In this document: positions 12,528 through 64,000 of the stretch, one piece after another
Layout of the letters: each line of letters opens with the position of its first letter
Numbering within the stretch: the stretch's first letter is position 1
Sequence record: MN648445
Strand: one strand, 5' to 3'
DNA: 64,000 nt
Source of the DNA: Escherichia phage FP43
Made by a program: the position numbers and the translations under genes
The notes under the pieces: generated by a model
The model's input: only the letters and a program-made list of their open reading frames with translations
What the model was told of the DNA's origin: nothing
Database searches by the model: none

Positions 12528-12539
12528 TTTCACAAAACA

Positions 12540-12576: not shown

Positions 12577-12603
12577 TCAAATAAATGACCTCAAGGAAAT
12601 AAA

Positions 12604-12891: not shown

Positions 12892-12894
12892 GTA

Positions 12895-12933
12895 GTTTAC
12901 ATGCTGATAGGACTATGTTATAGTAGTCCTATC
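12895..12933 (+). promoter_or_regulatory. Early promoter cassette with perfect 10-bp inverted repeat around -10
   Basis: GTTTAC 12895..12900; TATAGT 12919..12924; arms GATAGGACTA (12906..12915) and TAGTCCTATC (12924..12933). Confidence 0.65.
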
Positions 12934-12959
12934 AGATCAACAACCAAACGGAAAAACAA

Positions 12960-13223
12960 ATGAAAACCTATAAAGAATTTATCGCTGAATCTCAATCTTC
13001 TACTCTGTCAGAGAACTACGAATCATTCTCTTACAACAACGACCATGCAATGTTCTACGACCGAAACATCGGTACTTACGTCCATGTATGGGGTGTTAAA
13101 GATGGTAATGTAGTTGTTAAGAAAAACTCTAAAGAAGGCAACGGACGAGGCCAGGTAAAAATTACCAGCAAGAAAGCTATCCAAGCTTACGTCGATTATG
13201 TTAAACGCGAAGCTGGTATTTAA
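12960..13223 (+). CDS. Internal-protein-like capsid-targeted protein (second copy)
   Basis: N-terminus MKTYKEFIAE; tandem with 12604..12891. Confidence 0.6.
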   Translation: MKTYKEFIAESQSSTLSENYESFSYNNDHAMFYDRNIGTYVHVWGVKDGNVVVKKNSKEGNGRGQVKITSKKAIQAYVDYVKREAGI

Positions 13224-13225
13224 TA

Positions 13226-13264
13226 GTTTACATGCCGATAGGACTATGTTATAGTAGTCCTATC
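13226..13264 (+). promoter_or_regulatory. Early promoter cassette, same family as 12895
   Basis: GTTTAC 13226..13231, TATAGT 13250..13255, GATAGGACTA/TAGTCCTATC arms. Confidence 0.65.
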
Positions 13265-13293
13265 AAAACAAAATGATTAAATGGAGAAATAAA

Positions 13294-13479
13294 ATGAAAC
13301 GCGCTGAACTGATTCGTAATGTTGCTGTAGTAATTGCTTCAATGGCTTTTAGTTTTTCGATGTTTGTAGGATTCATTTGTGGACTACTGACAACAACTGA
13401 AAATTCTATCTCATTGGTAGTAGCATTTCTAATCGGTTTAATCGCTATTGTTATGGATAAAATTGCAAAAGGTGAGTAA
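13294..13479 (+). CDS. Small hydrophobic (membrane) protein
   Basis: 61-aa ORF with two hydrophobic stretches; RBS GGAG upstream. Confidence 0.4.
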   Translation: MKRAELIRNVAVVIASMAFSFSMFVGFICGLLTTTENSISLVVAFLIGLIAIVMDKIAKGE

Positions 13480-13480
13480 A

Positions 13481-13843
13481 ATGAAATATCACGTATATGC
13501 GGATTTTGAAGCAAATCCTTCTAAAGACCCGGATTGTCGTTTATTCCGTAATCCGTTTGATTCAGCAGCTCAAGCATGGGCCTGGATTAAAACTTGTACT
13601 CCTTCTTACACTTTCTTTGAAGTGGTAGATGATAACGGTGTTTTGCATCCAGAACCTACAGAAACTATTAATTTCCTTCTGTTTGCTGGTTACGACTGTT
13701 ATCCTCTTGGCGGTATTGATGATCTTGTTGCTACAGGAAAAACTGTTGAAGCTCTTCGCGAAATTTATAAAAACGCGGAAGAAAATTTTGACTGGTATCA
13801 TATTGTTGATGCTCATACCTTTGAAGTGGTGGAACATTCATGA
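13481..13843 (+). CDS. Hypothetical protein
   Basis: 120-aa ORF from ATG 13481 with RBS; no recognised motif. Confidence 0.45.
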   Translation: MKYHVYADFEANPSKDPDCRLFRNPFDSAAQAWAWIKTCTPSYTFFEVVDDNGVLHPEPTETINFLLFAGYDCYPLGGIDDLVATGKTVEALREIYKNAEENFDWYHIVDAHTFEVVEHS

Positions 13844-14130
13844 TTCTTTATGCTAAGGTAAAATCCGTTGAGAATGGATATGAAAGCGATCAACGTGCAG
13901 CTAAAGCACTAGTTGATGACTACGGTATTCTGACCCACTTTGAAGTTGAAAAGGTTTATATTGACCGTTCATCTTCACAGGTTAAATTACTCTGGGAAGA
14001 CCGTAAATTTAATAGCGTGAACTTTGATTTCTTTATTGAAACAGAAAAAGGCCCTCTTGAATATGATATTTTCAAGAATCCTTTGAAATTACGTTGCATT
14101 GAATATAATTACATTAATATGGTACGGTGA
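13840..14130 (+). CDS. Hypothetical protein
   Basis: 96-aa ORF with start overlapping upstream stop. Confidence 0.4.
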   Translation: MILYAKVKSVENGYESDQRAAKALVDDYGILTHFEVEKVYIDRSSSQVKLLWEDRKFNSVNFDFFIETEKGPLEYDIFKNPLKLRCIEYNYINMVR

Positions 14131-14134
14131 GTAA

Positions 14135-14650
14135 ATGAATATTTGTTTAGGCAGTACAATTCCTAAGGGTTACGTAATTGATGTCACTACTTGGGAAAAT
14201 GACGGCGACAACTATAAAACCAAAACATTATTTGGTGTGGAAGAGCATGAGCTCCAACAGTTTAAATATCTCTTGAAGAAATTTAAGAGTCGTCATTCCA
14301 GCACTAAAGCCGAACGTTACTGCGGTAATACGCCATTCGGTCGTTGCTCGCTTTTAATCTATGAATACTTGGTTGAAGGACTGTTCTCAGACCAACTCCA
14401 ACCGGAATTTATTAAAAAGGTCTTTGGCATCGAAGTAGACCTTGGTGATAAATCTGAAGAAGACGAAGCCCGCGTATTCGACCTGTTCTTTGTGAAAGGC
14501 GATGAGATATCTCAAGGACTTATTGATATTCTTGGCTATGCTTCTGAATACTATGATTACGATTTCTTGCGTGTAGTTGAACGTGTCGAATTTGCTTATA
14601 TTGAAGAAGAAATTGTTTTGCCAACTGTTAAAATGATTGATTTGCTTTAA
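14135..14650 (+). CDS. Hypothetical protein
   Basis: 171-aa ORF in same orientation as flanking genes. Confidence 0.45.
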   Translation: MNICLGSTIPKGYVIDVTTWENDGDNYKTKTLFGVEEHELQQFKYLLKKFKSRHSSTKAERYCGNTPFGRCSLLIYEYLVEGLFSDQLQPEFIKKVFGIEVDLGDKSEEDEARVFDLFFVKGDEISQGLIDILGYASEYYDYDFLRVVERVEFAYIEEEIVLPTVKMIDLL

Positions 14651-14729
14651 GAATTATGTGTTATTATTAATTCATACCCTCTATTACCAAAGGTGCTCTA
14701 AAGTGCCTTTCATAATAGAAAGTTATTAA

Positions 14730-14804
14730 GGCCCTGTAGCTCAATGGGAGAGCTGTCAGCTCATAACTGATAGGTAGCTGGATCGAAACCAGCCAGGGTC
14801 ACCA
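14730..14804 (+). tRNA. tRNA with CAU anticodon (elongator Met, or Ile2 if C34 is modified)
   Basis: Hand-folded cloverleaf: acceptor GGCCCTG/CAGGGTC, D-arm GCTC/GAGC, anticodon stem GTCAG/CTGAT with loop CTCATAA, T-arm GCTGG/CCAGC, encoded CCA. Confidence 0.7.
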
Positions 14805-14807
14805 ATT

Positions 14808-14884
<77 letters not shown>

Positions 14885-14902
14885 ACTTCAAGTGAGGAAA
14901 AT

Positions 14903-15247
14903 ATGAAAGGCAATGTTTATCTGGTAGTTCATGATTTAACGTTTTATTTTAACGAACGTGAAACAGTTATTTCCGATAGGTTAATTAATTCGCTGTATCA
15001 GCATGCTGATTATGTTTATTTTCAAAATGAATTCGGACATTGGAAGTTTCTTAAAAACCGTTCTGGGTTAACTAGTTTTGAATACTTTGACCGTAAAGAC
15101 CTTTTAAACGAAATTCCATTACAACATCGGTTCCAGAAACGCGAATCATTATATTATTGCCGTCATATACCAAACGCAGAATGTGCCTATGAAGCGATTA
15201 ATCTATGGCGTCGGCGTCGAGAGCAAATTGATGATATGCCAAAATAA
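14903..15247 (+). CDS. Hypothetical protein
   Basis: 114-aa ORF from ATG 14903 with GAGGAAAA RBS directly after tRNA-Arg. Confidence 0.45.
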   Translation: MKGNVYLVVHDLTFYFNERETVISDRLINSLYQHADYVYFQNEFGHWKFLKNRSGLTSFEYFDRKDLLNEIPLQHRFQKRESLYYCRHIPNAECAYEAINLWRRRREQIDDMPK

Positions 15248-15249
15248 GA

Positions 15250-15549
15250 AGCCGGGTCGCTACCGGCAAGTCGTCGGACTGATGTTCCCTGAGTAGGGAC
15301 TGGTCTTAATAAATCTTTATGATTCGTTAATATCCCCTTACATCACAGCAGAAACGGCGCACAGAATTATCGATTCGAGGAAATATCTTTGCCGTAAGCC
15401 GAGTAGCGTTTTTGACGGGACGTTCGGATATGGTAGAGATATGGCCTTTTAAAAATATTGAGTAGCGTCAACTGCTTAATAACCGGGTTCGAATCCCGGC
15501 GTTTCGTACAAACACTTACCTAGTAGGTGGAAACCCCGACAAGGTATAT
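15250..15549 (+). ncRNA. Candidate small stable RNA(s) downstream of the tRNAs
   Basis: About 300 nt without a convincing ORF; several hairpins and a T-arm-like GGGTTCGAATCCCGG; ends at a strong terminator; T4 has small RNAs C and D in its tRNA region. Confidence 0.3.
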
Positions 15550-42038: not shown

Positions 42039-42512
42039 ATGTTATTATCTGGCAAATTATACAAAGAAGAAAAACAAAAATTTTATGATGCACAGAACGG
42101 TAAGTGTCCTATTTGCCACCGTGAATTAGACCCTGATGTTCAAGGTAACCATCTTGACCACGACCATGAATTAAACGGGCCAAAAGCTGGTAAGGTTCGT
42201 GGTTTACTATGTAACCTGTGCAATGCAGCAGAAGGTCAAATGAAGCATAAGTTCAACCGTTCTGGTCTTAAAGGTCAAAACGTTGATTACCTCGAATGGC
42301 TTGAAGCTCTTCTTGCTTATTTGAAACAAGACTATTCTGATAATAATGTCCATCCTAATTTTGTTCCAGACAAAACTAAAGAGTTCTCAAGACTAGGTAA
42401 AGAGGAAATGATGACCGAGATGCTTCAAAGAGGATTTGAATATAATGAATCTGATACTAAAACACAATTAATAGCTTCATTCAAAAAGCAGCTTAGAAAG
42501 AGTTTAAAATGA
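42039..42512 (+). CDS. 49: Endonuclease VII (Holliday-junction resolvase)
   Basis: 157 aa MLLSGKLYKEEKQKFYDAQNGKCPICHREL...HLDHDH...; recognised T4 gp49 pattern. Confidence 0.88.
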   Translation: MLLSGKLYKEEKQKFYDAQNGKCPICHRELDPDVQGNHLDHDHELNGPKAGKVRGLLCNLCNAAEGQMKHKFNRSGLKGQNVDYLEWLEALLAYLKQDYSDNNVHPNFVPDKTKEFSRLGKEEMMTEMLQRGFEYNESDTKTQLIASFKKQLRKSLK

Positions 42513-44326
42513 AAATTGAAAAAGAAATTGAAGGATTAATTTATAAAACTAATAAAGATCTTTTGAACGAGAATGCTAATAAAGATTCTCGTGTTTTTCC
42601 AACTCAACGGGACCTTATGGCTGGTATTGTGTCTAAGCACATTGCCAAAAATATGGTCCCGTCTTTTATTATGAATGCGCATGAAAGCGGAATCATTCAT
42701 ATGCATGATATTGATTATTCTCCTGCTCTTCCATTTACTAATTGTTGTTTAGTCGATTTAAAGGGGATGCTTGAGAACGGATTTAAATTAGGCAATGCTC
42801 AAATTGAAACGCCTAAATCGATTGGTGTTGCTACTGCAATTATGGCACAAATTACTGCACAGGTTGCTTCACATCAATACGGCGGAACGACTTTTGCTAA
42901 TGTAGATAAAGTACTTTCTCCTTATGTTAAACGTACATACGCTAAACATGTTGAAGATGCAGAAAAATGGCAAATCGCTGATGCGTTGAATTATGCTCAA
43001 TCTAAAACAGAAAAAGACGTATACGATGCATTCCAAGCTTATGAATATGAAGTAAATACTCTTTTTAGTTCAAACGGGCAAACGCCTTTTGTAACAATTA
43101 CATTTGGTACGGGAACCGATTGGACCGAACGAATGATTCAGAAGGCAATTCTTAAAAACCGCATTAAAGGTCTTGGTCGTGATGGAATAACTCCTATTTT
43201 TCCTAAACTTGTTATGTTTGTTGAAGAAGGTGTTAATCTTTATAAAGATGATCCAAACTATGATATTAAACAACTTGCGTTAGAATGTGCAAGCAAAAGA
43301 ATGTATCCTGACATTATTTCGGTTAAGAATAATAAAGCTATTACCGGTTCTTCAGTTCCGGTTTCTCCAATGGGTTGCCGTAGTTTCTTGAGCGTATGGA
43401 AAGATTCGACTGGTAATGAAATTCTTGATGGACGTAATAATCTTGGTGTTGTAACACTGAATCTTCCTCGCATCGCGTTAGATTCTTATATTGGAACACA
43501 GTTCAATGAACAGAAATTTGTTGAGCTATTTAATGAACGAATGGATCTGTGCTTTGAAGCCTTGATGTGCAGAATTAGTTCTTTAAAGGGCGTTAAAGCG
43601 ACTGTTGCTCCTATTCTTTACCAAGAAGGTGCATTCGGGGTTCGTCTTAAACCTGACGACGATATAATTGAGATATTTAAAAACGGTAGAAGTTCAGTGT
43701 CTTTAGGATACATTGGTATTCATGAATTGAATATTCTTGTTGGTCGTGATATTGGACAAGAAATTTTAACTAAAATGAATGCTCATCTTAAACAGTGGAC
43801 CGAAAGAACTGGATTTGCTTTTAGCTTATATTCTACTCCTGCTGAAAACCTTTGTTATCGCTTCTGTAAACTTGATACAGAAAAATATGGAAGTGTAAAA
43901 GATGTCACTGATAAAGGCTGGTACACTAACAGTTTCCATGTTTCAGTAGAAGAAAATATTACTCCGTTTGAAAAAATTTCTCGTGAAGCGCCATATCATT
44001 TCATTGCGACAGGTGGTCACATTTCTTATGTTGAACTTCCTGATATGAAAAATAACTTAAAAGGACTTGAGGCTGTCTGGGATTATGCTGCACAACATTT
44101 AGATTATTTTGGTGTTAATATGCCAGTGGATAAATGTTTTACATGCGGAAGTACTCATGAAATGACTCCTACTGAAAACGGATTTGTTTGTTCAGTTTGT
44201 GGAGAAACTGATCCTAAAAAGATGAACACCATAAGAAGAACATGCGGTTATTTGGGAAATCCGAACGAGCGCGGATTTAATCTAGGCAAAAATAAAGAAA
44301 TCATGCATAGGGTTAAACACCAATGA
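42509..44326 (+). CDS. nrdD: Anaerobic ribonucleoside-triphosphate reductase NrdD
   Basis: 605 aa, contiguous with no intron; C-terminal glycyl-radical motif RRTCGY. Confidence 0.88.
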   Translation: MKIEKEIEGLIYKTNKDLLNENANKDSRVFPTQRDLMAGIVSKHIAKNMVPSFIMNAHESGIIHMHDIDYSPALPFTNCCLVDLKGMLENGFKLGNAQIETPKSIGVATAIMAQITAQVASHQYGGTTFANVDKVLSPYVKRTYAKHVEDAEKWQIADALNYAQSKTEKDVYDAFQAYEYEVNTLFSSNGQTPFVTITFGTGTDWTERMIQKAILKNRIKGLGRDGITPIFPKLVMFVEEGVNLYKDDPNYDIKQLALECASKRMYPDIISVKNNKAITGSSVPVSPMGCRSFLSVWKDSTGNEILDGRNNLGVVTLNLPRIALDSYIGTQFNEQKFVELFNERMDLCFEALMCRISSLKGVKATVAPILYQEGAFGVRLKPDDDIIEIFKNGRSSVSLGYIGIHELNILVGRDIGQEILTKMNAHLKQWTERTGFAFSLYSTPAENLCYRFCKLDTEKYGSVKDVTDKGWYTNSFHVSVEENITPFEKISREAPYHFIATGGHISYVELPDMKNNLKGLEAVWDYAAQHLDYFGVNMPVDKCFTCGSTHEMTPTENGFVCSVCGETDPKKMNTIRRTCGYLGNPNERGFNLGKNKEIMHRVKHQ

Positions 44327-44793
44327 ATTATGATAGATTTTATCCTTGCGATTTTGTGAATGGCCCTGGTTGTAGGGTCGTTCTTTTCGTTACAGGGTGT
44401 TTGCATAAATGCGAAGGGTGTTATAATAAATCAACATGGAATGCTAGAAATGGTGTTCCATTCACTGGTGAAACACTAGAACAATTAATTGAATGTTTGA
44501 ATAATGATTATATAGAAGGATTGACTATAACTGGAGGAGACCCTCTCTATCCTGATAACCGAGATGTTATTCATTGCATTGTCCAAACAGTAAAAAATCT
44601 TTATCCCAGTAAAAGCATTTGGTTGTGGACAGGATACAAGTTTGAAGATATTAAACAACTAGAAATGCTTAAATATGTTGATGTTATTATTGATGGGAAG
44701 TATGAGAAAAATCTTCCGACCAAAAAGCTGTGGCGAGGATCAGATAATCAGCGACTTTGGTCAAATACCGATGGGGTGTGGAAACATGATTAA
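44323..44793 (+). CDS. nrdG: Anaerobic RNR activating radical-SAM protein NrdG
   Basis: 156 aa with CLHKCEGC (Cx3Cx2C) motif. Confidence 0.85.
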   Translation: MNYDRFYPCDFVNGPGCRVVLFVTGCLHKCEGCYNKSTWNARNGVPFTGETLEQLIECLNNDYIEGLTITGGDPLYPDNRDVIHCIVQTVKNLYPSKSIWLWTGYKFEDIKQLEMLKYVDVIIDGKYEKNLPTKKLWRGSDNQRLWSNTDGVWKHD

Positions 44794-48206: not shown

Positions 48207-48226
48207 AATTGAGCCAAGAGGTACTT

Positions 48227-48784
48227 ATGACTGAACAAAAACCTAAAAATAACTATGTGAATAATAAAGAGCTTCTCGCCGCTATAATCGAGTGGAAAAA
48301 GGAGCTCTTAAATAATAAAGACCCAAACAAAATTATTCGTCAGAATGATACCATCGGTTTAGCAATTATGCTTATCGCCGAAGGCCTGTCCAAACGTTTC
48401 AACTTTTCAGGATATACCCAGTCTTGGAAGCAGGAGATGATTGCAGATGGGATTGAAGCCTCTATTAAGGGACTTCATAATTTCGACGAAACTAAGTACA
48501 ATAACCCACATGCATACATAACTCGAGCTTGTTTTAATGCTTTTGTCCAACGTATCAAAAAAGAACGTAAGGAAGTTGCAAAGAAATATAGTTACTTCGT
48601 TCATAATGTCTACGACAGTCATGACGATGATATGGTAGCGTTGGTAGATGAAACGTTTATTCAAGACATCTACGATAAAATGACGCATTATGAAGAATCC
48701 GCTTATAAAGCTCCTGGGGCTGAAAAGAAGGAAGTTGTTAGCGATTCGCCTAGTTTGGATTTTTTATATGAGGATGACAATTGA
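48227..48784 (+). CDS. 55: Late-transcription sigma factor gp55
   Basis: 185 aa, [27 protein letters not shown]...; recognised T4 gp55 pattern. Confidence 0.88.
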
Positions 48785-48983
48785 CATCTCTAACTACTTA
48801 GAAGAACCTTTTGACGAAGCAATCCCTTATTTGGTAAAACTGTTGGGTCGTGAATTTAAAATTAATTTTGACATCGACCCTTTGAACCCACATGACGTGT
48901 CATTTTCGATAAATGGGACTCCAGTTGAGTACGAGTTCTGTATTGAAGAGGATGGACGTTTTTATTTTAATTTAATGAGATAA
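48768..48983 (+). CDS. Small hypothetical protein
   Basis: 71-aa ORF overlapping the end of gene 55. Confidence 0.35.
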
Positions 48984-48984
48984 T

Positions 48985-49308
48985 ATGACTACCGAGATTA
49001 TTGAAAATAAAGAAGCAGAAGATGCAGTAGCTAAAATGCTACAAGAAATCCAAAAGAAAAATGAAGCTGAAGCACGTAAAAAATCCGAAAAGATTCTTAA
49101 AAAGAATCGTTTTGAACTAAACCGTCTTTATGCACATGCTCAAGAAGCAGCAATTCAAAACAACTTCGAAGCTTACGAATATGCTATTAAGAAATCTCGG
49201 GATATTCTACGACAACCATATAATGACAAGTTAATTAAAATCCAGTGGATTACTACTCGTCAGGCTATTGAGGACATCATTAATGGCGCTAGTTCAAACA
49301 AAGTTTAA
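48985..49308 (+). CDS. Hypothetical protein
   Basis: 107-aa Lys/Glu-rich ORF. Confidence 0.4.
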   Translation: MTTEIIENKEAEDAVAKMLQEIQKKNEAEARKKSEKILKKNRFELNRLYAHAQEAAIQNNFEAYEYAIKKSRDILRQPYNDKLIKIQWITTRQAIEDIINGASSNKV

Positions 49309-49489
49309 ACGTCTGAAGCTGAACGCAGGGTTCTCCCTTAAATTGGGAGGTCCTCTTTGTGTTAAAATTTCTGAAAAGGAATATCACGACGGTTCTATTA
49401 CAGAAATTTGTCCGCCTATTGTAAAGGCAGACCCAAAACAACTCGTGTGGGTCGATTCATTTCAAGTTAAGAAATGGTGGAAACGATGA
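49283..49489 (+). CDS. Small hypothetical protein
   Basis: 68-aa ORF from ATG 49283. Confidence 0.35.
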   Translation: MALVQTKFKRLKLNAGFSLKLGGPLCVKISEKEYHDGSITEICPPIVKADPKQLVWVDSFQVKKWWKR

Positions 49490-49528
49490 GAGAAATTGAT
49501 TTAGGCATTTTCTGAGAGGTGCTTATGC

Positions 49529-49702
49529 ATGACGAACATCCCGACTTCTGAAAATTTCGATAAAATCCGTAAAGGCAAAGCAGAAAGAATGAGACGTTTT
49601 AAAGAGTCTTATGATAAAGCTAAAGCCGAAGGAACTATTACATACAAGCCCATTCGATTTAAAAGTTCAAATGAGCCTCTGTACGGTGTACTATGTGGAT
49701 AG
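49529..49702 (+). CDS. Small basic hypothetical protein
   Basis: 57-aa ORF (MTNIPTSENFDKIRKGK...) with GAGAGG RBS, ending at a strong terminator; below the ORF-track cutoff. Confidence 0.4.
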   Translation: MTNIPTSENFDKIRKGKAERMRRFKESYDKAKAEGTITYKPIRFKSSNEPLYGVLCG

Positions 49703-49727
49703 GAACTCTTCGGAGTTCCTTTTTTTG
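49702..49727 (+). terminator. Rho-independent terminator
   Basis: GGAACTC-TTCG-GAGTTCC followed by T7. Confidence 0.8.
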
Positions 49728-49772
49728 CTTTATAAACGGATGATAAAATGAATTAACTAATGAGGAAATAAT

Positions 49773-50792
49773 ATGAAAATTTTGCACTTAGGCGACTTCC
49801 ATATCGGAGTCAAACAAGACGACCCATGGGTTCAAGATATTCAACGTGATGGTATTCGACAAGCAATTGAATACTCTAAGAAACACGGGATTAAAACTTG
49901 GATTCAGTACGGTGATTGGTTTGACGTCCGTAAAGCAATAACACATCGTACAATGGAATTCAATCGTGAAATCGTTGATATGATTTCTAAAGCAGGCATT
50001 CACGTTCATGTCACGATAGGAAACCATGACATGGCGTTTAAGAATACAATAACACCTAACACTGTTTCTGAATTGTTAACTCAATTTGAAAACTTTACTA
50101 TTTACGAGCATCCAACTACTGTAGATTTTGACGGATGTCTGATTGATATCGTTCCATGGATGTGTGAAGAAAATACAGGTGAAATCTTAGAGCACATCAA
50201 GACTTCTTCTGCTGCGTATTGTGTTGGTCACTGGGAACTGAACGGTTTTTATTTCTATAAAGGAATGAAGTCCCATGGGCTTGAACCTGATTTCTTAAAG
50301 ACCTATAAACAAGTCTGGTCCGGCCACTTCCACACAATCTCTGAAGCTGCTAACGTCAAATATATTGGGACACCATGGACCCTTACTGCAGGTGACGAGA
50401 ACGACCCACGTGGATTCTGGGTATTCGACACTGATGTTGAACGTATGGAATTTATTCCTAATGAAACAACATGGCATCGACGAATCACTTATCCGTTTAA
50501 AGGCAAAATCAATTATTCTGATTATACTAATCTAGCCGTACGTGTTATAGTATCAGAAATTGATTCAGAGTTGACTAAATTTGAATCTGAACTTGAAAAA
50601 GTAGTTCACTCTCTTCGTATGGTTTCTAAAGTTGATAACAGTGTTGAATCTGATGACGACCAGGAAATCGAGATTAAATCACTTCAAGATATCATTAAAG
50701 AATATATTGACGCGATTCCAGATATCTCAGACGAAGACAGAGAAGCGCTGGTCAAATATTCCAACGAACTTTATATTGAGGCAACACAATGA
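49773..50792 (+). CDS. 47: Recombination endonuclease subunit gp47 (Mre11-like)
   Basis: 339 aa; phosphoesterase motifs GDFH and GNHD; T4 gp47 size. Confidence 0.88.
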   Translation: MKILHLGDFHIGVKQDDPWVQDIQRDGIRQAIEYSKKHGIKTWIQYGDWFDVRKAITHRTMEFNREIVDMISKAGIHVHVTIGNHDMAFKNTITPNTVSELLTQFENFTIYEHPTTVDFDGCLIDIVPWMCEENTGEILEHIKTSSAAYCVGHWELNGFYFYKGMKSHGLEPDFLKTYKQVWSGHFHTISEAANVKYIGTPWTLTAGDENDPRGFWVFDTDVERMEFIPNETTWHRRITYPFKGKINYSDYTNLAVRVIVSEIDSELTKFESELEKVVHSLRMVSKVDNSVESDDDQEIEIKSLQDIIKEYIDAIPDISDEDREALVKYSNELYIEATQ

Positions 50793-56413: not shown

Positions 56414-59125
56414 ATGAAAGAATTTTACTTAACGGTTGAACAGATTGGTGATTCAATTTTTGAACGTTACATCGATTCTAATGGCCGTGAACGTACTCGT
56501 GAAGTAGAGTATAAGCCATCGTTGTTTGCACATTGTCCTGAAAGTCAGGCTACGAAATATTACGATATCTATGGTAAACCTTGTACTCGTAAATTATTCG
56601 CTAACATGCGTGATGCCTCCCAATGGATTAAACGCATGGAAGATATCGGACTTGAAGCACTTGGCATGGACGATTTCAAATTGGCGTATTTGTCTGACAC
56701 TTATAACTATGAAATCAAATACGACCATACAAAAATTCGTGTGGCTAACTTCGACATCGAAGTAACATCTCCGGACGGGTTCCCTGAGCCGTCACAAGCA
56801 AAACATCCGATTGATGCTATCACCCATTATGACTCAATTGATGACAGGTTTTATGTATTTGACCTTTTGAATTCTCCATACGGTAATGTAGAAGAATGGT
56901 CTATCGAAATTGCGGCTAAGCTTCAAGAACAAGGTGGTGATGAAGTTCCATCCGAAATTATCGATAAAATCATTTATATGCCGTTCGATAACGAAAAAGA
57001 ATTGTTAATGGAATATCTCAACTTCTGGCAACAGAAAACTCCTGTCATTTTGACTGGATGGAACGTTGAGTCATTTGATATTCCATATGTGTATAACAGA
57101 ATCAAGAATATTTTTGGTGAATCTACTGCGAAACGTTTATCACCACATCGTAAAACTCGTGTTAAAGTTATCGAAAACATGTATGGTTCTCGTGAAATCA
57201 TTACATTGTTCGGTATCTCTGTTCTTGATTACATTGACCTTTACAAAAAATTCTCTTTTACCAATCAACCGTCGTATTCTCTGGATTACATTTCAGAATT
57301 TGAATTGAACGTTGGTAAACTGAAATATGACGGCCCTATTTCTAAGCTTCGTGAAAGCAATCACCAACGATATATTTCTTATAACATCATCGACGTGTAT
57401 CGTGTATTGCAAATTGATGCTAAGCGCCAGTTCATCAACTTGAGTTTGGACATGGGTTATTATGCTAAGATACAGATTCAATCTGTGTTCAGCCCAATTA
57501 AAACATGGGATGCTATTATTTTTAATAGCCTTAAAGAGCAGAACAAGGTGATTCCACAAGGTCGTTCTCACCCGGTTCAACCTTATCCCGGTGCTTTTGT
57601 TAAGGAACCTATTCCAAATCGATACAAATATGTAATGAGTTTCGACCTTACATCTCTGTATCCAAGTATTATTCGCCAAGTGAATATTAGCCCAGAAACA
57701 ATAGCAGGAACGTTTAAAGTAGCTCCACTGCATGATTATATTAACGCAATCGCTGAACGTCCTTCAGATGTGTACAGTTGTTCTCCTAACGGCATGATGT
57801 ATTATAAAGACCGTGATGGTGTAGTTCCAACTGAAATCACTAAGGTCTTTAATCAACGTAAAGAACATAAAGGTTACATGCTTGCGGCTCAACGTAATGG
57901 TGAAATAATTAAAGAGGCGTTGCATAATCCTAATCTTTCTGTTGACGAACCATTAGATGTTGATTATCGTTTCGACTTCAGCGATGAGATTAAAGAAAAG
58001 ATTAAAAAGTTGTCTGCTAAATCTCTTAATGAAATGTTGTTTAGAGCTCAACGTACTGAAGTTGCAGGTATGACTGCACAAATTAACCGTAAATTGCTCA
58101 TCAACTCGCTTTATGGTGCACTTGGAAACGTTTGGTTCCGTTATTACGATTTGCGTAATGCTACTGCAATCACAACATTTGGTCAAATGGCTTTACAGTG
58201 GATTGAACGTAAAGTTAATGAATACCTGAATGAAGTTTGTGGTACAGAAGGCGAAGCTTTCGTTCTTTATGGTGATACAGACTCTATTTACGTATCTGCT
58301 GATAAAATTATCGATAAGGTTGGTGAATCTAAATTCCGTGATACCAACCATTGGGTAGACTTCTTAGATAAGTTTGCTCGTGAACGTATGGAACCGGCTA
58401 TTGATAGAGGTTTCCGTGAAATGTGTGAATACATGAATAATAAGCAACATTTGATGTTCATGGACCGAGAAGCTATTGCTGGTCCTCCGCTCGGTTCTAA
58501 AGGTATTGGTGGATTCTGGACTGGTAAGAAACGTTATGCATTAAACGTGTGGGATATGGAAGGAACTAGATACGCTGAGCCTAAACTCAAAATCATGGGT
58601 CTAGAGACTCAGAAATCTTCGACCCCTAAAGCAGTACAGAAAGCTCTTAAAGAATGTATTCGTCGTATGCTTCAAGAAGGTGAAGAATCATTACAAGAAT
58701 ATTTTAAAGAGTTTGAAAAAGAATTCCGTCAATTGAATTATATTAGCATCGCGTCAGTATCTTCTGCGAATAACATTGCTAAATACGACGTTGGTGGATT
58801 CCCTGGTCCTAAATGCCCGTTCCATATTCGTGGAATTCTGACATATAACAGAGCTATCAAAGGTAATATTGATGCTCCACAAGTTGTAGAAGGCGAAAAG
58901 GTATACGTTCTGCCTTTACGTGATGGAAACCCGTTCGGTGATAAATGTATCGCATGGCCTTCTGGTACTGAAATCACAGATTTAATTAAAGACGACGTAC
59001 TTCATTGGATGGACTACACTGTTCTCCTTGAGAAGACATTTATTAAACCACTTGAAGGATTCACATCAGCAGCGAAACTCGATTACGAGAAGAAAGCATC
59101 TCTGTTCGATATGTTCGATTTTTGA
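56414..59125 (+). CDS. 43: DNA polymerase gp43 (family B)
   Basis: 903 aa; exo motif FDIEV, polymerase motif YGDTDS; N-terminus MKEFYLTVEQIGDSIFERYIDSNGRERT... matches RB69 gp43 as recalled. Confidence 0.93.
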   Translation: MKEFYLTVEQIGDSIFERYIDSNGRERTREVEYKPSLFAHCPESQATKYYDIYGKPCTRKLFANMRDASQWIKRMEDIGLEALGMDDFKLAYLSDTYNYEIKYDHTKIRVANFDIEVTSPDGFPEPSQAKHPIDAITHYDSIDDRFYVFDLLNSPYGNVEEWSIEIAAKLQEQGGDEVPSEIIDKIIYMPFDNEKELLMEYLNFWQQKTPVILTGWNVESFDIPYVYNRIKNIFGESTAKRLSPHRKTRVKVIENMYGSREIITLFGISVLDYIDLYKKFSFTNQPSYSLDYISEFELNVGKLKYDGPISKLRESNHQRYISYNIIDVYRVLQIDAKRQFINLSLDMGYYAKIQIQSVFSPIKTWDAIIFNSLKEQNKVIPQGRSHPVQPYPGAFVKEPIPNRYKYVMSFDLTSLYPSIIRQVNISPETIAGTFKVAPLHDYINAIAERPSDVYSCSPNGMMYYKDRDGVVPTEITKVFNQRKEHKGYMLAAQRNGEIIKEALHNPNLSVDEPLDVDYRFDFSDEIKEKIKKLSAKSLNEMLFRAQRTEVAGMTAQINRKLLINSLYGALGNVWFRYYDLRNATAITTFGQMALQWIERKVNEYLNEVCGTEGEAFVLYGDTDSIYVSADKIIDKVGESKFRDTNHWVDFLDKFARERMEPAIDRGFREMCEYMNNKQHLMFMDREAIAGPPLGSKGIGGFWTGKKRYALNVWDMEGTRYAEPKLKIMGLETQKSSTPKAVQKALKECIRRMLQEGEESLQEYFKEFEKEFRQLNYISIASVSSANNIAKYDVGGFPGPKCPFHIRGILTYNRAIKGNIDAPQVVEGEKVYVLPLRDGNPFGDKCIAWPSGTEITDLIKDDVLHWMDYTVLLEKTFIKPLEGFTSAAKLDYEKKASLFDMFDF

Positions 59126-59165: not shown

Positions 59166-59801
59166 ATGAAAACTACACCAATCACTATCGCTATTGACGC
59201 AATCGTAAAACAAGCTTCATCTCTTGCCACTATGGCTAAAGTAATTAGTCAAAACTCTGCCCGATATAATGCTATTCTTGAAACTCTTCGTCGCCCTGGA
59301 CTGAGTAATTATGAAAGCCGAGTAATTATTACAGGTGTTGGTAAGAACGCTAATATCGCAACTAAAGCTTCCGAGACTTTTGCTTCACTAGGTATTCCTA
59401 GCATGTATTTGAACACCGGGCATTATTCTCATGGCGACGCAGGATTTATTGCACCTAATGATGTATTAGTTCACATCAGTCGTTCTGGTAAGACTGAAGA
59501 AATGATAGGTGTTGCTAAACATCTTCGTATGATTCGTCCTCAGGTTAAACAGATTCTGTTACATTGTAACCCTGACATTCCGCAAGAATACGAAGCTCTT
59601 TTTGATTATACGTTCTGTACAGGCATCGCGGTAGAGGTTGATGAGAATTCTCTGGCTCCGACCATGTCCACTACATTGTTGTTAGCGCTTATCGATACGT
59701 TTGCTATCAACCTTTCGTCTGAACGTGGATTTACCTCTAATGACTTCCTTAAGTTCCACCCTGGTGGTGCACTAGGTGCCATGTTACGAGGCGAACAATG
59801 A
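59166..59801 (+). CDS. SIS-domain sugar-phosphate isomerase (GmhA/KdsD-like)
   Basis: 211 aa; GVGKNANIATKASETF and C-terminal HPGGALG typical of SIS isomerases. Confidence 0.65.
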   Translation: MKTTPITIAIDAIVKQASSLATMAKVISQNSARYNAILETLRRPGLSNYESRVIITGVGKNANIATKASETFASLGIPSMYLNTGHYSHGDAGFIAPNDVLVHISRSGKTEEMIGVAKHLRMIRPQVKQILLHCNPDIPQEYEALFDYTFCTGIAVEVDENSLAPTMSTTLLLALIDTFAINLSSERGFTSNDFLKFHPGGALGAMLRGEQ

Positions 59802-59941
59802 AAGCAATAACAATAGGACTTTTACTATTGATGCTTGTCATGACTATCTACTGGAGCTTAACGGCTCCAGTAATGATTCCGACTCTTATAATCGGATGGA
59901 TTATGATTGGACTACAAGCAAAGTATGAATGCTTTAACTAG
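59798..59941 (+). CDS. 47-aa two-helix membrane peptide
   Basis: MKAITIGLLLLMLVMTIYWSLTAPVMIPTLIIGWIMIGL...; ATGA overlap with isomerase stop; below ORF-track cutoff. Confidence 0.35.
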   Translation: MKAITIGLLLLMLVMTIYWSLTAPVMIPTLIIGWIMIGLQAKYECFN

Positions 59942-59982
59942 AATAGTGTACGATACACCTACTTACCAATGAGGACCACAAC

Positions 59983-61668
59983 ATGAAAAAAGCTGTTATT
60001 CTTGGTGCTGGACTGGCAACTCGTTTGTATCCAATAACGCACCATATTCCTAAGGTGCTTGTTAACTATAAACAAGACACTATTCTGAGCAATTTGTATA
60101 CAATTTATTCTGACCTTGGCGCAGATGAAATTATTGTAGTAGTTCATTCAAAATTTGCTGAAACTGTTCGAGCTTATTGCGAGCAAGAAGGGTTCAATGT
60201 GACTATTCGTACAGTTGATGAAGCGTATGGTTCTGCTTATGCTCTTGCTAAATTATACAAAGATTTAGATGGCCATAACGTAATTGTTAACTGGTGTGAT
60301 ATTATTCCTGACTTTGGTTCATGGTCTTGGAATGTTAACGCAATCTATGTTAAGGGTGATGAATGTCGATATAATTTCGATGGTGAAAATATCACTAACG
60401 TAGGTTCAACAGGTGGTAATGTTGTAGGAATTTATCAGTTCAAAGACTGGGAATTCTACATGGGTTCTACTGATGAGGAAATTCACGAATACTGCAAAGG
60501 TCGTGATTTCGTAGAATTCCTTTACGGCAGTGCATTCAATAAATCAGAGCTTATGAATCTAATTGATTTAGGTGATATGCCTAAACTTGAAAAGGCTCAT
60601 GAAGTTCGTGAACTGAATCGTAGTTTTAATGCAGTTGAAATTGGCGAAGAAACTGTAACTAAATTCGCGTTAACCGAACAAGGTCGAGCTCTTCAAAAAG
60701 ATGAGATTTCATGGTATTTGAAAGTGAAATCAGATTCAGTTCCTCAGTTAGTTTCGGTAAATGAAAATAATTTTGAAATGGAACGTATTAAAGGTAAGCC
60801 GGCATTTGAATATATTAAATCCAAATCAAGTCTTGCTCGTCCACAAATTGTTGATGCAATTTTAGATGCACTGAAATTCAGCACGGACACTTATTTTGTA
60901 AGTCCTGAAACTGTTCGCCGTGATTTCACTAAAGAGTTCTATACGAAAGTTATTGATCGTTGTGAAAGCATTCAGCCATTGATTGATTCATTTGGTAAAA
61001 TCACACATGTGAACTACACTAAGATTGGACGTCTGAAGCCAATGTTGAAACAAGCTTTAGAACATCTTATTCGTTATCATAACCGTTCTCAGGGACAGTA
61101 CTCTGTTATTCATGGTGACCCGAACTTCAGTAATACTATGATTACCGATAACGGCGAAGTCAAGTTTATCGACCCTCGTGGATATTTTGGTGAAACCAAG
61201 ATTTACGGGCCAAAATTGTATGATGAAGCTAAAGTGCTTTATGCTGTTTCAGGTTATGATGAATTCAATGCTAATCCGACCTGGGGTCAGTTTACTATTG
61301 ATGAAACAACTTGTAATGTGACTATTAACATCAATCCATTAGTTTACAAATATGGAAAGATGAGTTCGTTTAACGAGTATCATCATTTGGCAGTAGCAAT
61401 TATCTGGATTGCATTAGGTGGTTATTTCAAGAATAATCCACTTAAAGCGGTTGCCGCATATTATAAAGGTATGGAACTTCTGACTAAGCAATTACGTAAC
61501 ATGGGCCGTGTACTTCAAGACGGCTCTATTAGTTATGACGTAGCAGAACCTGTAACGGCTACTCTGATTACAAAAAATCCTGGTAAATGGGTACTAACTG
61601 ATAAAGAAACTGGTGTTTCCTATCGTCCAATCGGCGGCGATATCACTCATCAATGGGAACGAATCTAA
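59983..61668 (+). CDS. Bifunctional sugar-1-phosphate nucleotidyltransferase / sugar kinase
   Basis: 561 aa; N-terminal MKKAVILGAGLATRLYP (RmlA/GlmU-like); C-terminal HGDPNFSN ... IDPRG (APH/choline-kinase-like). Confidence 0.65.
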   Translation: MKKAVILGAGLATRLYPITHHIPKVLVNYKQDTILSNLYTIYSDLGADEIIVVVHSKFAETVRAYCEQEGFNVTIRTVDEAYGSAYALAKLYKDLDGHNVIVNWCDIIPDFGSWSWNVNAIYVKGDECRYNFDGENITNVGSTGGNVVGIYQFKDWEFYMGSTDEEIHEYCKGRDFVEFLYGSAFNKSELMNLIDLGDMPKLEKAHEVRELNRSFNAVEIGEETVTKFALTEQGRALQKDEISWYLKVKSDSVPQLVSVNENNFEMERIKGKPAFEYIKSKSSLARPQIVDAILDALKFSTDTYFVSPETVRRDFTKEFYTKVIDRCESIQPLIDSFGKITHVNYTKIGRLKPMLKQALEHLIRYHNRSQGQYSVIHGDPNFSNTMITDNGEVKFIDPRGYFGETKIYGPKLYDEAKVLYAVSGYDEFNANPTWGQFTIDETTCNVTININPLVYKYGKMSSFNEYHHLAVAIIWIALGGYFKNNPLKAVAAYYKGMELLTKQLRNMGRVLQDGSISYDVAEPVTATLITKNPGKWVLTDKETGVSYRPIGGDITHQWERI

Positions 61669-62054
61669 TGCACCGTGTAGAAAACATGCTTAATCTTTGT
61701 TTTGATGTCGATGATTGTATAACAGAGTGGAATAACAATCGTGATTACGTGAACTTCAAACCAGACGTCGAAATGGTGTCTGCCATTAATGCCCTGTATG
61801 ATGCAGGGCATACCATAACGCTTTACACTGCCCGTGGTATGAAGTCGGTAGGTCCTGGTCGTATAGCAATTGACATTCTCCCAAGTCTGATTCAGAACTT
61901 GGAAAACATTGGTTTGAAGTACCATAATTTGCTAACACATAAACCAGTATATGATTGGATTATCGACGACAAAGCTATGCGTCCTGACGAATTCAAAGCT
62001 CTTATGAATAAAGGCGAATTCGAAACATTTAAATCATATAAACCAAATCTATAA
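61668..62054 (+). CDS. HAD-superfamily phosphatase (small, KdsC/GmhB-like)
   Basis: 128 aa; motif I FDVDDCIT, motif II ITLYTAR, Lys in HKP, motif IV IIDD. Confidence 0.6.
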   Translation: MHRVENMLNLCFDVDDCITEWNNNRDYVNFKPDVEMVSAINALYDAGHTITLYTARGMKSVGPGRIAIDILPSLIQNLENIGLKYHNLLTHKPVYDWIIDDKAMRPDEFKALMNKGEFETFKSYKPNL

Positions 62055-62100
62055 TAATTTAAGTAAGACCTGCAAAAACCATCGCATCAATTAACGCGAG

Positions 62101-63273
62101 ATGCAAAAAAAAATGAATACTTTTAAAATCGGAACGAATTTTGATTTAGCTCTTCTTGATAAAATCGTAGAGCTCAATAAAACCTATCCTAATAGCTTGA
62201 TAAACGAAGTATATGGCTCTACAAGAGAAATGGCTTTTGTAGCAGCCAGACCTGATTTTAGGCTTCCTGACGTTGACAAAAAGATGTTAGAAGATTACGT
62301 TAAACGTTGTAACGAATTAGGTATTTGCTTTAACTATACACTCAACACGATAAATCCTGGTTCAAAAAGAGAACTAGTTGAGTGGAAGAAGAAAGCTATT
62401 CAGGATTATGTTCAGTATCTTTGGTCAATAGGCGTATGGCGTATTACTATCGCTAACCCTGTTGTTATGGAAATTGTTCGTGAAGTCAATAAAGATATTG
62501 AGATTGAAGTTTCAACAATTCTACATGTTGATGCTGTAACTCAAATCAAATACTTGCATGACCAATATAACATCAAAAAGGTCTGTTGCGGAATTCATAA
62601 GAACCGTTCAGTTTCTTTCCTGAAGCGTGCAGCAGAGTTTTGCAATAAGAACAATATAATATTTGAAGTTCTTGTAAATGAGTTCTGTTCTAATGCTGGT
62701 AAAGGGTATACAACACATTGTAGCTATCGTGACTCTTGCTATATTTTCCATAGTACTGATGTTACCGCTGATGATGCTAAATCCTTAAATGGATATCCTA
62801 TGCAGCACTGTATTAAAGCTCGTGATACAGACCCATTTAACTGGTTGAGAACTCGTTTTGTTCGTCCTCAAGATTTGAAACTTTATAATGATATTGGTAT
62901 CACTCAATTTAAAGTTTCAGGACGTACAGGTAGCACAGACTACATTTTGAAAGTTCTTGAAGCATACGCTTCTGAAAAGTTTGAAGGTAATTTGTTAGAA
63001 CTGTGGAAGCCTTTAGAGACTATTTTCACTCTTGAAAATGAGACTGAGTTTTCACATACAGTAAATATTGAAACCTCTTTGTTAGATGGCTTTTTAGAAA
63101 AAAGGTGGTTCAGACATCCAGATTTTGATTGTGCTAATGAAATCTGTGGGTCAACGTGTACATATTGTGAAAGGTATTATAAACGTCAATTATCTAAAAA
63201 CGGGTTAGCAGAAAACTCCATATCTATTATTGATATAACTAACTCTGATGACGCTTTGAGGTACCCGGAATGA
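62101..63273 (+). CDS. U32-family protein (peptidase U32 / prephenate-dependent hydroxylase fold)
   Basis: 390 aa; blocks align by eye to U32 proteins: IANPVVMEIVRE, IIFEVLVNEFC, KVSGRTGSTDY (cf. KIEGRTKSFYY), plus C-terminal Cys cluster. Confidence 0.6.
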   Translation: MQKKMNTFKIGTNFDLALLDKIVELNKTYPNSLINEVYGSTREMAFVAARPDFRLPDVDKKMLEDYVKRCNELGICFNYTLNTINPGSKRELVEWKKKAIQDYVQYLWSIGVWRITIANPVVMEIVREVNKDIEIEVSTILHVDAVTQIKYLHDQYNIKKVCCGIHKNRSVSFLKRAAEFCNKNNIIFEVLVNEFCSNAGKGYTTHCSYRDSCYIFHSTDVTADDAKSLNGYPMQHCIKARDTDPFNWLRTRFVRPQDLKLYNDIGITQFKVSGRTGSTDYILKVLEAYASEKFEGNLLELWKPLETIFTLENETEFSHTVNIETSLLDGFLEKRWFRHPDFDCANEICGSTCTYCERYYKRQLSKNGLAENSISIIDITNSDDALRYPE

Positions 63274-63509
63274 TTTCTAGAAAAAGTTTTAATTATAAAC
63301 TTAACGAAGAGATTTTGACTATGAAACTGAACACTAACGAACAAATTCTTAAAAAGGCCCTTATGGGCCTGTTTGAAACCAAAGCGGCTAAAGTGATTAA
63401 AGAACCTGTTCAATTGGAATACTACACTGATGCATTCCTTCATAGTGTTCTTGGAAGTATAGATTCTGAAGCTTTACGTTATATCAACATTGTCAAGAAA
63501 TTCAAATAA
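63270..63509 (+). CDS. Hypothetical protein
   Basis: 79-aa ORF with ATGA overlap. Confidence 0.4.
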   Translation: MISRKSFNYKLNEEILTMKLNTNEQILKKALMGLFETKAAKVIKEPVQLEYYTDAFLHSVLGSIDSEALRYINIVKKFK

Positions 63510-63568: not shown

Positions 63569-64000
63569 ATGAAATATATCAAAGCCGCAGATTTTCAAGC
63601 CGCATTTAAAGCAGTCAATCGTGAAATTTTAGAAAACCCCGAATTCGTAACTGATTCTCGTATTGGACGTTGTAATGAAATCGGGTCCATGACAGTAGTT
63701 GTTGACAATCCATCATCATTCAAAATGACCGACCCACGTATTAACCGCATCTCTTATGAATATGCCGAAGACTTCTGGAAGTTTATGATTTCTGGTGGTA
63801 CTGATGCAGAAGAAGCGTTTAAGGCATATCCTAATGTCGCTAAATTCATTTCTAAACCAAAATCAGATGCTTTGCCTGCGAACTTCAACACTTTCTACGG
63901 TCCTCGCATTGTGGCCCAATTACCAGCTCTTCTAAAAGAACTTAAAGAGAAACCTAACTCTCGAAGAGTTGTGTTCCAAATTCTAGAAAGTTCTGATCAG
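63569..64000 (+). CDS. 42: Thymidylate-synthase-family pyrimidine hydroxymethylase (gene 42 position), N-terminal part; 3' end beyond window
   Basis: TS-like blocks AEDFWKFMISGG and KPNSRRVV (cf. PDSRR); position next to gene 43 as for T4 gene 42; N-terminus diverges from T4 gp42 as recalled. Confidence 0.55.
   Translation, partial: MKYIKAADFQAAFKAVNREILENPEFVTDSRIGRCNEIGSMTVVVDNPSSFKMTDPRINRISYEYAEDFWKFMISGGTDAEEAFKAYPNVAKFISKPKSDALPANFNTFYGPRIVAQLPALLKELKEKPNSRRVVFQILESSDQ

Follow-up and report, generated by a model that had tools for sequence, protein, structure and literature searches.

The DNA of phage RB69 contains arabinose, and two of its genes, ORF055c and ORF53_52c, were nominated for the arabinose pathway in a study which also recognised ORF053c and ORF052c as encoding a single protein of 561 residues (PMC6024577, Thomas 2018). 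In phages of the RB69 type the sugars are ether-linked to 5-hydroxycytosine (PMC13326640, Lee 2026), and arabinosylated 5-hydroxycytosine has been reported in the virion DNA of RB69 and of the Mosigvirus NP. The modified nucleotide 5-hydroxy-dCMP is made by RB69 gp48, a ThyA homologue that binds flavin and takes its oxygen from O2 (PMC13326640). Here we analyse the corresponding locus, between positions 59,166 and 63,509, in a stretch of 64,000 nucleotides from Escherichia phage FP43 (sequence record MN648445; this whole stretch is called the window below). We concentrate on the only part of this gene cassette that still looks unexplained, a U32-family protein of 390 residues encoded on the + strand at 62101..63273 (RB69 gp50), which carries ten conserved cysteines and had merely been listed in an earlier reading of this DNA made from its letters alone (the original prediction). 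We slightly favour the view that it is an oxygen-independent cytosine hydroxylase.

The sugar side of the modification has been studied in phage HY126. According to the account of He 2026 (Nat Chem Biol) given in PMC13326640, HY126 AfhE combines the activities of an arabinose-5-phosphate (Ara-5-P) kinase and of a UDP-arabinose pyrophosphorylase, AfhF is a Mg-dependent phosphatase acting on arabinose-1,5-bisphosphate (Ara-1,5-P2), and the order of intermediates is Ara-5-P, Ara-1,5-P2, arabinose-1-phosphate (Ara-1-P) and UDP-D-arabinofuranose (UDP-Araf), with no free arabinose intermediate. The sugar pathway is thus already known: it was put forward in 2018 and its characterisation followed in 2025-2026. 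The original prediction was mistaken in presenting it as a candidate new pathway. Mahler 2025 (Cell Host Microbe) is said to be a further source on the RB69/HY126 arabinosyl-5-hydroxycytosine system. A June 2026 paper on a Mosigvirus calls the full pathway still uncharacterised.

All U32 proteins characterised so far have been connected with hydroxylations that are independent of O2 and dependent on prephenate and iron-sulfur (Fe-S) clusters. RlhA makes 5-hydroxycytidine at C2501 of 23S rRNA and needs prephenate and Fe-S; TrhP makes ho5U34 in tRNA in a prephenate-dependent reaction and has an O2-dependent partner, TrhO; for UbiU/UbiV prephenate is the oxygen donor in anaerobic ubiquinone synthesis. 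The term U32 is absent from PMC13326640, where RB69 gp50 is labelled 'sugar or heterocycle reductase' from a fold match to PDB 5d88 and where RlhA and TrhP are mentioned only as unrelated pyrimidine hydroxylations. Our literature search, which did not cover the full texts of He 2026 and Mahler 2025, found nothing that connects phage 5-hydroxycytosine with U32, prephenate or chorismate mutase. What is new here is the U32 hydroxylase hypothesis, made by no paper found in that search; the sugar cassette itself is known biology.

Sequence, fold and cysteines of the U32 protein

The U32 protein matched the Pfam Peptidase_U32 model with 42.2 bits (cut-off 22.4) and is 99% identical to RB69 ORF050c. 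The best PDB match (Foldseek) of its AlphaFold2 model (predicted local distance difference test score 93) was the U32 protein 5d88, the other matches being generic TIM barrels. When a profile of 78 phage sequences was aligned by hhalign with the cores of E. coli RlhA, TrhP, UbiU and UbiV, a probability of 97% and an E value of 8.8e-11 were obtained over 213 columns, and C207 and C213 of the phage protein fell on the first two, CX6C-spaced, Fe-S cysteines of these four enzymes. Profile methods alone worked at this distance: a MAFFT alignment of the phage protein with the four E. coli paralogues was unreliable in the cysteine region, a search of PDB sequences with the single U32 sequence gave no match, and the family profile gave only a spurious match to BIM1. 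No sugar-enzyme family scored with the protein in Pfam and NCBIfam scans.

The expected [4Fe-4S] ligand motif was CX6CX15CX3-4C or variants of it, and cysteine conservation was followed in 121 homologues of 48-100% identity. C162, C196, C207, C213, C237, C344, C349, C353 and C356 are invariant in 121/121 sequences, and C181 is present in 98% of them. These conserved cysteines would be sufficient for one or two Fe-S clusters. U32 is also the most conserved protein of the cassette, with 80-89% identity across genera in which the bifunctional sugar-nucleotide fusion protein encoded upstream of it shows 42-72%. Residues 344-356 form a C-x4-C-x3-C-x2-C motif whose last three cysteines, in CGSTCTYC, have the CX3CX(aromatic)C arrangement seen in radical-SAM enzymes. 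The E. coli U32 proteins lack this C-terminal motif, which could bind either another Fe-S cluster or zinc.

Genomic context of the U32 gene

In Serratia phage LC53 and Yersinia phage TG1 a chorismate mutase gene verified with Pfam (CM_2; 44.6 and 36 bits, cut-off 27) lies downstream of U32, directly after it in LC53 and separated from it in TG1 by a homologue of the 79-residue protein that follows U32 in the window. By tblastn this gene was recovered from 54 phage records, and in every one its neighbours are U32 and the ThyA-like gene. Among uncultured viral contigs, U32 has a DAHP-synthase/chorismate-mutase fusion as its direct neighbour in loci L047 (7302-8354) and L058 (11085-12200), and a Bacillus-type DAHP synthase follows U32 in locus L013 (8145-8891). 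In loci L033, L045, L046 and L049 either such a fusion or a stand-alone DAHP synthase was likewise seen beside U32; shikimate-pathway genes are very unusual in phages.

Outside the Straboviridae, neighbourhoods of ±7 to 10 kb were analysed around 39 U32 loci, 32 from IMG/VR and 7 metagenomic. A homologue of the GT1 glycosyltransferase of the gp46:47 type was found within 10 kb of U32 in 27 of these 39 loci, often overlapping or adjacent, and an AfhE-like fusion in 18; a ThyA-type gene was found near U32 in only one. In L047 the order is GT1, isomerase, AfhE-like protein, Tmk-like kinase, DAHP-synthase/chorismate-mutase fusion, HAD phosphatase and U32, and this locus has the appearance of a whole system in which U32 and chorismate mutase would replace the ThyA-like hydroxylase. 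Tmk-like kinases and dCMP deaminases frequently neighbour U32, and tRNA or translation genes were found in none of the U32 neighbourhoods examined. Unannotated neighbours of U32 on megaphage and Firmicutes-like contigs gave weak or no family matches.

The fusion, the phosphatase, the ThyA-like gene and GT1 occur without U32 in 57 Acinetobacter phage records, among which DLP3 is grouped, and in the Bp7-type Dhakaviruses. Because these phages keep the pathway, U32 is dispensable for making and transferring arabinose, and is not needed for sugar synthesis. Acinetobacter hosts are strict aerobes. Some GT1 glycosyltransferase genes are accompanied by the ThyA-type gene only, others by U32 only, and others again by the two together, the pattern that would be expected of two non-homologous enzymes sharing one job.

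Other surroundings of U32 differ from the arabinose type. Locus L006, an ENA scaffold of 86 kb, has a block at 8001-15428, maybe bacterial or prophage, with two U32 paralogues together with NT5C, a nicotinamide mononucleotide transporter, a deoxynucleoside kinase, a radical SAM/SPASM protein and a nucleoside 2-deoxyribosyltransferase, which suggests that here the same U32 clade is the centre of another pathway of nucleoside modification. In the viral locus L014 (4777-13179) U32 has a GT1 homologue on one side and a TET-associated glycosyltransferase (Pfam TAGT, 4e-8) on the other. Genes for dUTPase/DCD and UDP-galactopyranose mutase come next, and the surroundings lack a ThyA-type hydroxylase; this gene content points to a hexofuranosyl hydroxy-pyrimidine modification. 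In the megaphage-like loci L005 and L008 (up to 466 kb) U32 directly follows a dCMP deaminase, in a block that contains thymidylate kinase, UDG and a PolIII-alpha polymerase and has neither GT1 nor sugar genes within 8 kb; here a uracil nucleotide might be the substrate instead of a cytosine one.

Proposed function of the U32 protein

We propose that U32 is a [4Fe-4S], prephenate-dependent and O2-independent cytosine C5-hydroxylase, an assignment inferred from family, cysteines and gene neighbourhood that we consider a little more probable than all other functions together. Its Fe-S cluster or clusters would oxidise the cytosine ring, which would then be quenched by the hydroxyl released from prephenate to give 5-hydroxy-dCMP. 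The most likely substrate is dCMP, action at the nucleotide level being favoured because Tmk-like kinases and dCMP deaminases are often neighbours of the gene. U32 would thus be a second route to 5-hydroxy-dCMP when the host lacks oxygen, in Mosigvirus and many further T-even phages of enterobacteria the anaerobic twin of the O2- and flavin-dependent ThyA-like hydroxylase encoded beside it. The Mosigviruses would draw on host prephenate (PheA, TyrA), while in other genera the phage would supply the chorismate mutase itself. U32 would be the sole hydroxylase in many uncultured large phages, in company with GT1, sugar-nucleotide genes and a phage DAHP-synthase/chorismate-mutase as the supply of the oxygen donor. 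The wider claim, that U32 founds a phage-borne clade of prephenate-dependent, O2-independent hydroxylases making 5-hydroxy-pyrimidine for DNA, we regard as evenly balanced. For the combined reading of the locus, the arabinose pathway with the U32 proposal, our confidence is high.

The need for such an enzyme can be argued from the phage itself. The window encodes proteins of 605 residues (42509-44326) and 156 residues (44323-44793) which are annotated in the related phage p000v as the anaerobic ribonucleotide reductase NrdD and NrdG. The phage therefore seems equipped for anoxic replication, although the published hydroxylase needs O2. By analogy with T4, these phages presumably destroy dCTP, and RB69 encodes a dCTPase (PMC13326640). 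The ThyA-like enzyme requires O2 and these phages replace all their cytosine; in an anoxic host they would be unable to replicate unless they had another source of 5-hydroxy-dCMP.

Several points weigh against this interpretation. The similarity to RlhA, TrhP and UbiU is remote, and pairwise BLASTP of the phage protein with E. coli RlhA and UbiU gave nothing significant. C196 and C237 are invariant near C207 and C213, but their spacing differs and the alignment of the third and fourth Fe-S ligands is not clean. No U32 protein has yet been reconstituted in vitro as a hydroxylase, and He 2026 or Mahler 2025 may already assign or exclude a role for U32. The substrate could be dCMP, DNA or uracil. 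No chorismate mutase was found in the window, and the Mosigviruses have no phage chorismate mutase, an unrelated open reading frame (ORF) of 79 codons taking its place. A ThyA-like gene could sit beyond the ±7 to 10 kb analysed in the metagenomic loci. The E. coli Dhakaviruses (Bp7) are without U32 although their host is a facultative anaerobe too, and the correlation of U32 with the host covers few independent lineages. On the sugar side, the isomerase step is predicted, and UDP as the carrier, rather than another nucleoside diphosphate (NDP), rests on the HY126 work as relayed in PMC13326640.

The main alternative would place U32 in the sugar branch, as a reductase, epimerase or tailoring enzyme acting on arabinose or its nucleotide. 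Its gene does sit between those of the phosphatase and the base hydroxylase and lies inside sugar genes in L013 and L047; TIM-barrel folds are common among sugar enzymes, the reductase label stands in Table 1 of PMC13326640, and a BASEL phage record names the protein 'putative enzyme involved in UDP-arabinose biosynthesis'. This assignment is hard to reconcile with DLP3, the other Acinetobacter phages and Bp7, which keep the pathway without U32; the DNA of DLP3 is tri-arabinosylated and U32 is absent from its cluster list (PMC13326640). Moreover, no sugar-enzyme family scores with U32, a linkage to chorismate mutase and DAHP synthase would be senseless in pentose chemistry, and the invariant cysteines and the biology of the U32 family indicate the hydroxylation of an aromatic ring. 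We consider a role in the sugar branch unlikely.

U32 could also be an RNA hydroxylase like TrhP or RlhA, adjusting translation through the modification of tRNA or rRNA from phage or host, with its location in the cassette a coincidence. RNAs are the sole pyrimidine substrates known for U32 proteins, and T-even phages encode tRNAs. However, the phage protein lacks the C-terminal extensions of RlhA (653 residues) and TrhP (453 residues), tRNA and translation genes are absent from the U32 neighbourhoods, and in many unrelated phages the gene is syntenic with those of base glycosyltransferase, nucleotide kinase, dCMP deaminase and DNA polymerase, all of which makes an RNA substrate improbable, clearly more so than a sugar one. 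A genuine collagenase-like peptidase processing a phage or host protein, as the family name and the database labels 'peptidase' and 'collagenase-like protease' would have it, is very improbable: no proteolytic mechanism is known in the U32 family, whose characterised members are tied to hydroxylation, and neither the ten conserved cysteines nor the linkage to chorismate mutase and nucleotide metabolism fits a protease.

Sugar-nucleotide enzymes

The interval 59166-62054 very probably encodes the phage's own route to UDP-D-arabinofuranose, a judgement made jointly with the identification of the source phage as a Mosigvirus, that is, an RB69-like T-even phage. The first gene (59166..59801, + strand) encodes a SIS-domain protein of 211 residues, the equivalent of RB69 gp55 and a predicted arabinose-5-phosphate isomerase. 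It matched Pfam SIS (E=9.6e-10) and PHROG 5670, 'arabinose 5-phosphate isomerase' (2e-116), and its top PDB sequence matches were the arabinose-5-phosphate or phosphosugar isomerases 3etn, 5uqi and 2xhz. Arabinose-5-phosphate isomerases also ranked top among its 11 NCBIfam matches (KpsF/GutQ family 8.5e-32, KdsD 3.4e-30; KpsF/KdsD/GutQ range 8.5e-32 to 2.5e-22), which do not include the GmhA model.

The third gene (59983..61668, + strand) encodes the AfhE-type bifunctional fusion of 561 residues, RB69 ORF53_52c. Pfam NTP_transferase was recognised at residues 3-99 (E=1.3e-9), the transferase domain matching NTP_transferase models of the RmlA/GlmU/MurU-like kind, and a match was obtained to the CTP:phosphocholine cytidylyltransferase 1jyk in the PDB (2.4e-5). 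Residues 308-409 gave weak APH, choline-kinase and fructosamine-kinase-like matches around HGDPNFSN...IDPRG. From these matches and the HY126 activities of He 2026, as reported in PMC13326640, the N-terminal RmlA/GlmU-like domain is assigned as a putative Ara-1-P uridylyltransferase and the C-terminal APH/choline-kinase-like domain as a putative Ara-5-P 1-kinase. Length and architecture of the fusion agree with the protein described for RB69 in PMC6024577, and it is at least 95% identical in 152 phage records.

The phosphatase gene (61653..62054, + strand) encodes an AfhF-type HAD protein of 133 residues, RB69 gp51, expected to convert Ara-1,5-P2 into Ara-1-P. It matched the HAD capsule-biosynthesis phosphatase model TIGR01689 of NCBIfam (1.9e-13) and PDB 1xpj (1.5e-10), and is near-identical to PDB 9iqw ('capsule biosynthesis protein', 134 residues; E=4.1e-87). 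Together with 9iqc and 9ir2, 9iqw presumably represents the HY126 structures. In Serratia phage LC53 a homing-endonuclease-like gene containing NUMOD3 (L010, 5352-5990) lies between phosphatase and U32; the Mosigviruses lack it.

Taken in order, the SIS isomerase would convert ribulose-5-phosphate into arabinose-5-phosphate, the C-terminal kinase of the fusion would phosphorylate C1 to give arabinose-1,5-bisphosphate, the small HAD phosphatase would take off the 5-phosphate, and the N-terminal nucleotidyltransferase would produce UDP-Araf, from which arabinose would be put onto 5-hydroxycytosine, not 5-hydroxymethylcytosine, in DNA. The 5-hydroxy-dCMP would come from the flavin- and O2-dependent ThyA-like enzyme encoded from position 63569. 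The original prediction had rightly recognised the synthesis of an NDP-sugar donor for DNA hypermodification, in agreement with PMC6024577 and PMC13326640, and its assignments of the SIS, nucleotidyltransferase/APH-type kinase fusion, HAD and U32 domains agree with the Pfam and NCBIfam profiles. Its D-arabinose route was correct in starting from ribulose-5-phosphate and wrong in passing through free arabinose, since the kinase acts on Ara-5-P before the phosphatase (He 2026, as reported in PMC13326640). Likewise, of the arabinosyl-5-hydroxymethylcytosine that it gave for RB69-type phages the sugar stands and the base does not, being 5-hydroxycytosine with an ether link (PMC13326640).

An NDP-heptose, which had been called equally compatible with the domain content, or another non-pentose product is scarcely credible: the succession of SIS isomerase, kinase/nucleotidyltransferase and HAD phosphatase does mirror GmhA/HldE/GmhB and databases name the phosphatase 'phosphoheptose isomerase', but the isomerase fits KpsF/KdsD/GutQ and not GmhA models, the kinase is not HldE-like, arabinose has been found chemically in the DNA of RB69 and other Mosigviruses, and the near-identical HY126 enzymes are active on Ara-5-P in the account of He 2026 available to us.

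Organisation of the window

The best megablast match of the window was Escherichia phage p000v, genus Mosigvirus, with 99.6% nucleotide identity. About 150 RB69-like phages of E. coli and Shigella showed 95-99%, and RB69-type phages about 97%. The cassette itself is 97-99.6% identical to those of p000v, JS09 and Shf125875, and at least 80% of it is present at 95% nucleotide identity or more in 152 phage records. The base composition of the region is unremarkable.

The cassette comes immediately after the DNA polymerase gene gp43 (56414-59125), an arrangement shared with p000v, and its six + strand ORFs stand at exactly the coordinates originally given for them. The second of these, whose start overlaps the stop codon of the isomerase gene in ATGA, encodes a hydrophobic peptide of 47 residues (59798..59941, + strand; PHROG 3610). 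A homologue with 60% identity lies just after imm in phage Bp7 (L011, 6295-6432), which has neither the isomerase nor U32. Membership of the peptide in the sugar pathway is unlikely, as its Bp7 homologue stands beside imm where the isomerase is absent; it may belong to superinfection immunity instead.

The sixth ORF (63270..63509, + strand), which is translationally coupled to U32 and overlaps its stop codon in ATGA, encodes the 79-residue protein. It has no Pfam or NCBIfam match, and like the 47-residue peptide it matches only PHROGs of unknown function. A cryptic chorismate mutase was considered and rejected for this ORF, which has no Pfam match even at E=10 and shows no similarity to the chorismate mutases of LC53 and TG1; in Yersinia phage TG1 and Serratia phage 92A1 a homologue of this ORF occurs together with a chorismate mutase. 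That it might be an accessory factor of U32 is pure speculation.

The next gene (63569..64000, + strand), of which the first 144 codons are present before it runs off the end of the window, encodes the ThyA-family 5-hydroxy-dCMP synthase, RB69 gp48. The original prediction took this for the gene 42 position; the gene found there is that of the flavin- and O2-dependent 5-hydroxy-dCMP synthase (PMC13326640). Residues 1-144 align with the full-length p000v gp167. The p000v protein is about 97% identical to PDB 9iqc/9ir2 ('thymidylate synthase') and, after a correction of two residues in the MAFFT alignment, has RSQN at the position of Asp169 of E. coli ThyA (D169N), a position that the window ends before. 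In p000v the cassette is followed by the ThyA-like gene, a protein of 299 residues, a Tmk-like kinase and uvsX. The 299-residue protein is RB69 gp46:47, arabinosyltransferase 1, and the genes for the first arabinosyltransferase and the nucleotide kinase lie just past the end of the window. No gene of the size of an alpha-glucosyltransferase is present between gp55 (48209-48784) and gp47 (49773-50792), as originally noted: the ORFs in 48784-49773 have at most about 110 codons, in p000v as well.

Sigma-70-like promoter sites were not above shuffled expectation in the cassette (11 observed, 17.9 expected), and terminator-like sites were modestly above it (5 observed, 2.2 expected). The best + strand sigma-70-like site, TTTAAA-16-TATAAT (10/12; window 62028-62055), lies in the 46-nucleotide gap before the U32 start. 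Several genes are misnamed in public records: the HAD phosphatase as 'phosphoheptose isomerase' (PHROG 1238, RefSeq), the ThyA-like gene as 'deoxycytidylate 5-hydroxymethyltransferase' or 'thymidylate synthase', U32 as 'peptidase' and the fusion as 'bifunctional protein GlmU'.

Significance

The arabinose modification explains the resistance of RB69-type phages to many restriction enzymes and their failure to recombine with T4, and is relevant to phage therapy and type IV restriction. The sole published route to the acceptor base needs O2, yet these phages infect gut bacteria, presumably destroy dCTP and possess a ribonucleotide reductase of the anaerobic type. If our proposal is correct, U32 would account for the anaerobic replication of fully cytosine-substituted phages, for example in the anoxic gut. 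Prephenate-dependent hydroxylation would be extended from RNA and quinones to DNA precursors. It would also be the first time that a U32 hydroxylase is directed at DNA and that a virus uses prephenate to donate oxygen. The phages would also offer a compact, highly expressed U32 enzyme with natural chorismate-mutase partners for in vitro reconstitution. Finally, the combination of U32, chorismate mutase and GT1 could serve as a marker for hydroxy-pyrimidine DNA in uncultured phages without a ThyA-type hydroxylase.

Comparison with known systems

The closest system is that of RB69 and HY126 (gp55, gp52:53, gp51, gp48, gp46:47, gp3; AfhE/AfhF), which comes from the same genus and has the same gene order and near-identical proteins. 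Nothing material differs; the transferases are outside the window, which stops 144 codons into the hydroxylase gene.

The ADP-L-glycero-D-manno-heptose pathway (GmhA, HldE, GmhB) has the same order of isomerase, 1-kinase, distal HAD phosphatase and nucleotidyltransferase, and as in HldE the phage kinase and transferase are fused in one protein. However, the phage substrate is a pentose, the isomerase is of the KdsD/KpsF type and not GmhA, the kinase has an APH/choline-kinase fold and not that of ribokinase, and the transferase is RmlA/GlmU-like rather than cytidylyltransferase-like. As judged from these folds, the phage pathway appears to be an analogue of the ADP-heptose pathway, built from unrelated kinase and transferase folds, and not a member of it.

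In the T4 glucosyl-5-hydroxymethylcytosine system, which occupies the same neighbourhood, a ThyA-family enzyme likewise produces a modified dCMP, and sugars are added once the base is in DNA. Unlike in T4, the hydroxyl is carried directly on C5, without a methylene, and the hydroxylase uses flavin and O2 and not methylene-tetrahydrofolate. The sugar donor is made by the phage, whereas T4 uses a host metabolite, UDP-glucose, and there is no alpha-glucosyltransferase gene between 55 and 47.

With RlhA, TrhP, UbiU and UbiV the phage U32 protein shares the TIM-barrel core of Peptidase_U32, the cysteines aligned with CX6C and a 'K-I/V-x-G-R' motif. The product of RlhA is the same base modification, 5-hydroxycytosine, and relatives of the phage protein are genomically linked to the supply of prephenate. 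The phage proteins nevertheless form a separate, phage-specific clade of only remote sequence similarity, with the spacing C196-x10-C207-x5-C213-x23-C237 and an extra C-terminal CX4CX3CX2C cluster. In contrast to RlhA and TrhP, they have no RNA-binding extensions, and their presumed substrate is a deoxynucleotide or DNA. The proposed pairing of U32 with the ThyA-like hydroxylase would parallel TrhP/TrhO and UbiUV/UbiIHF in E. coli, as well as NrdDG/NrdAB in the phage.

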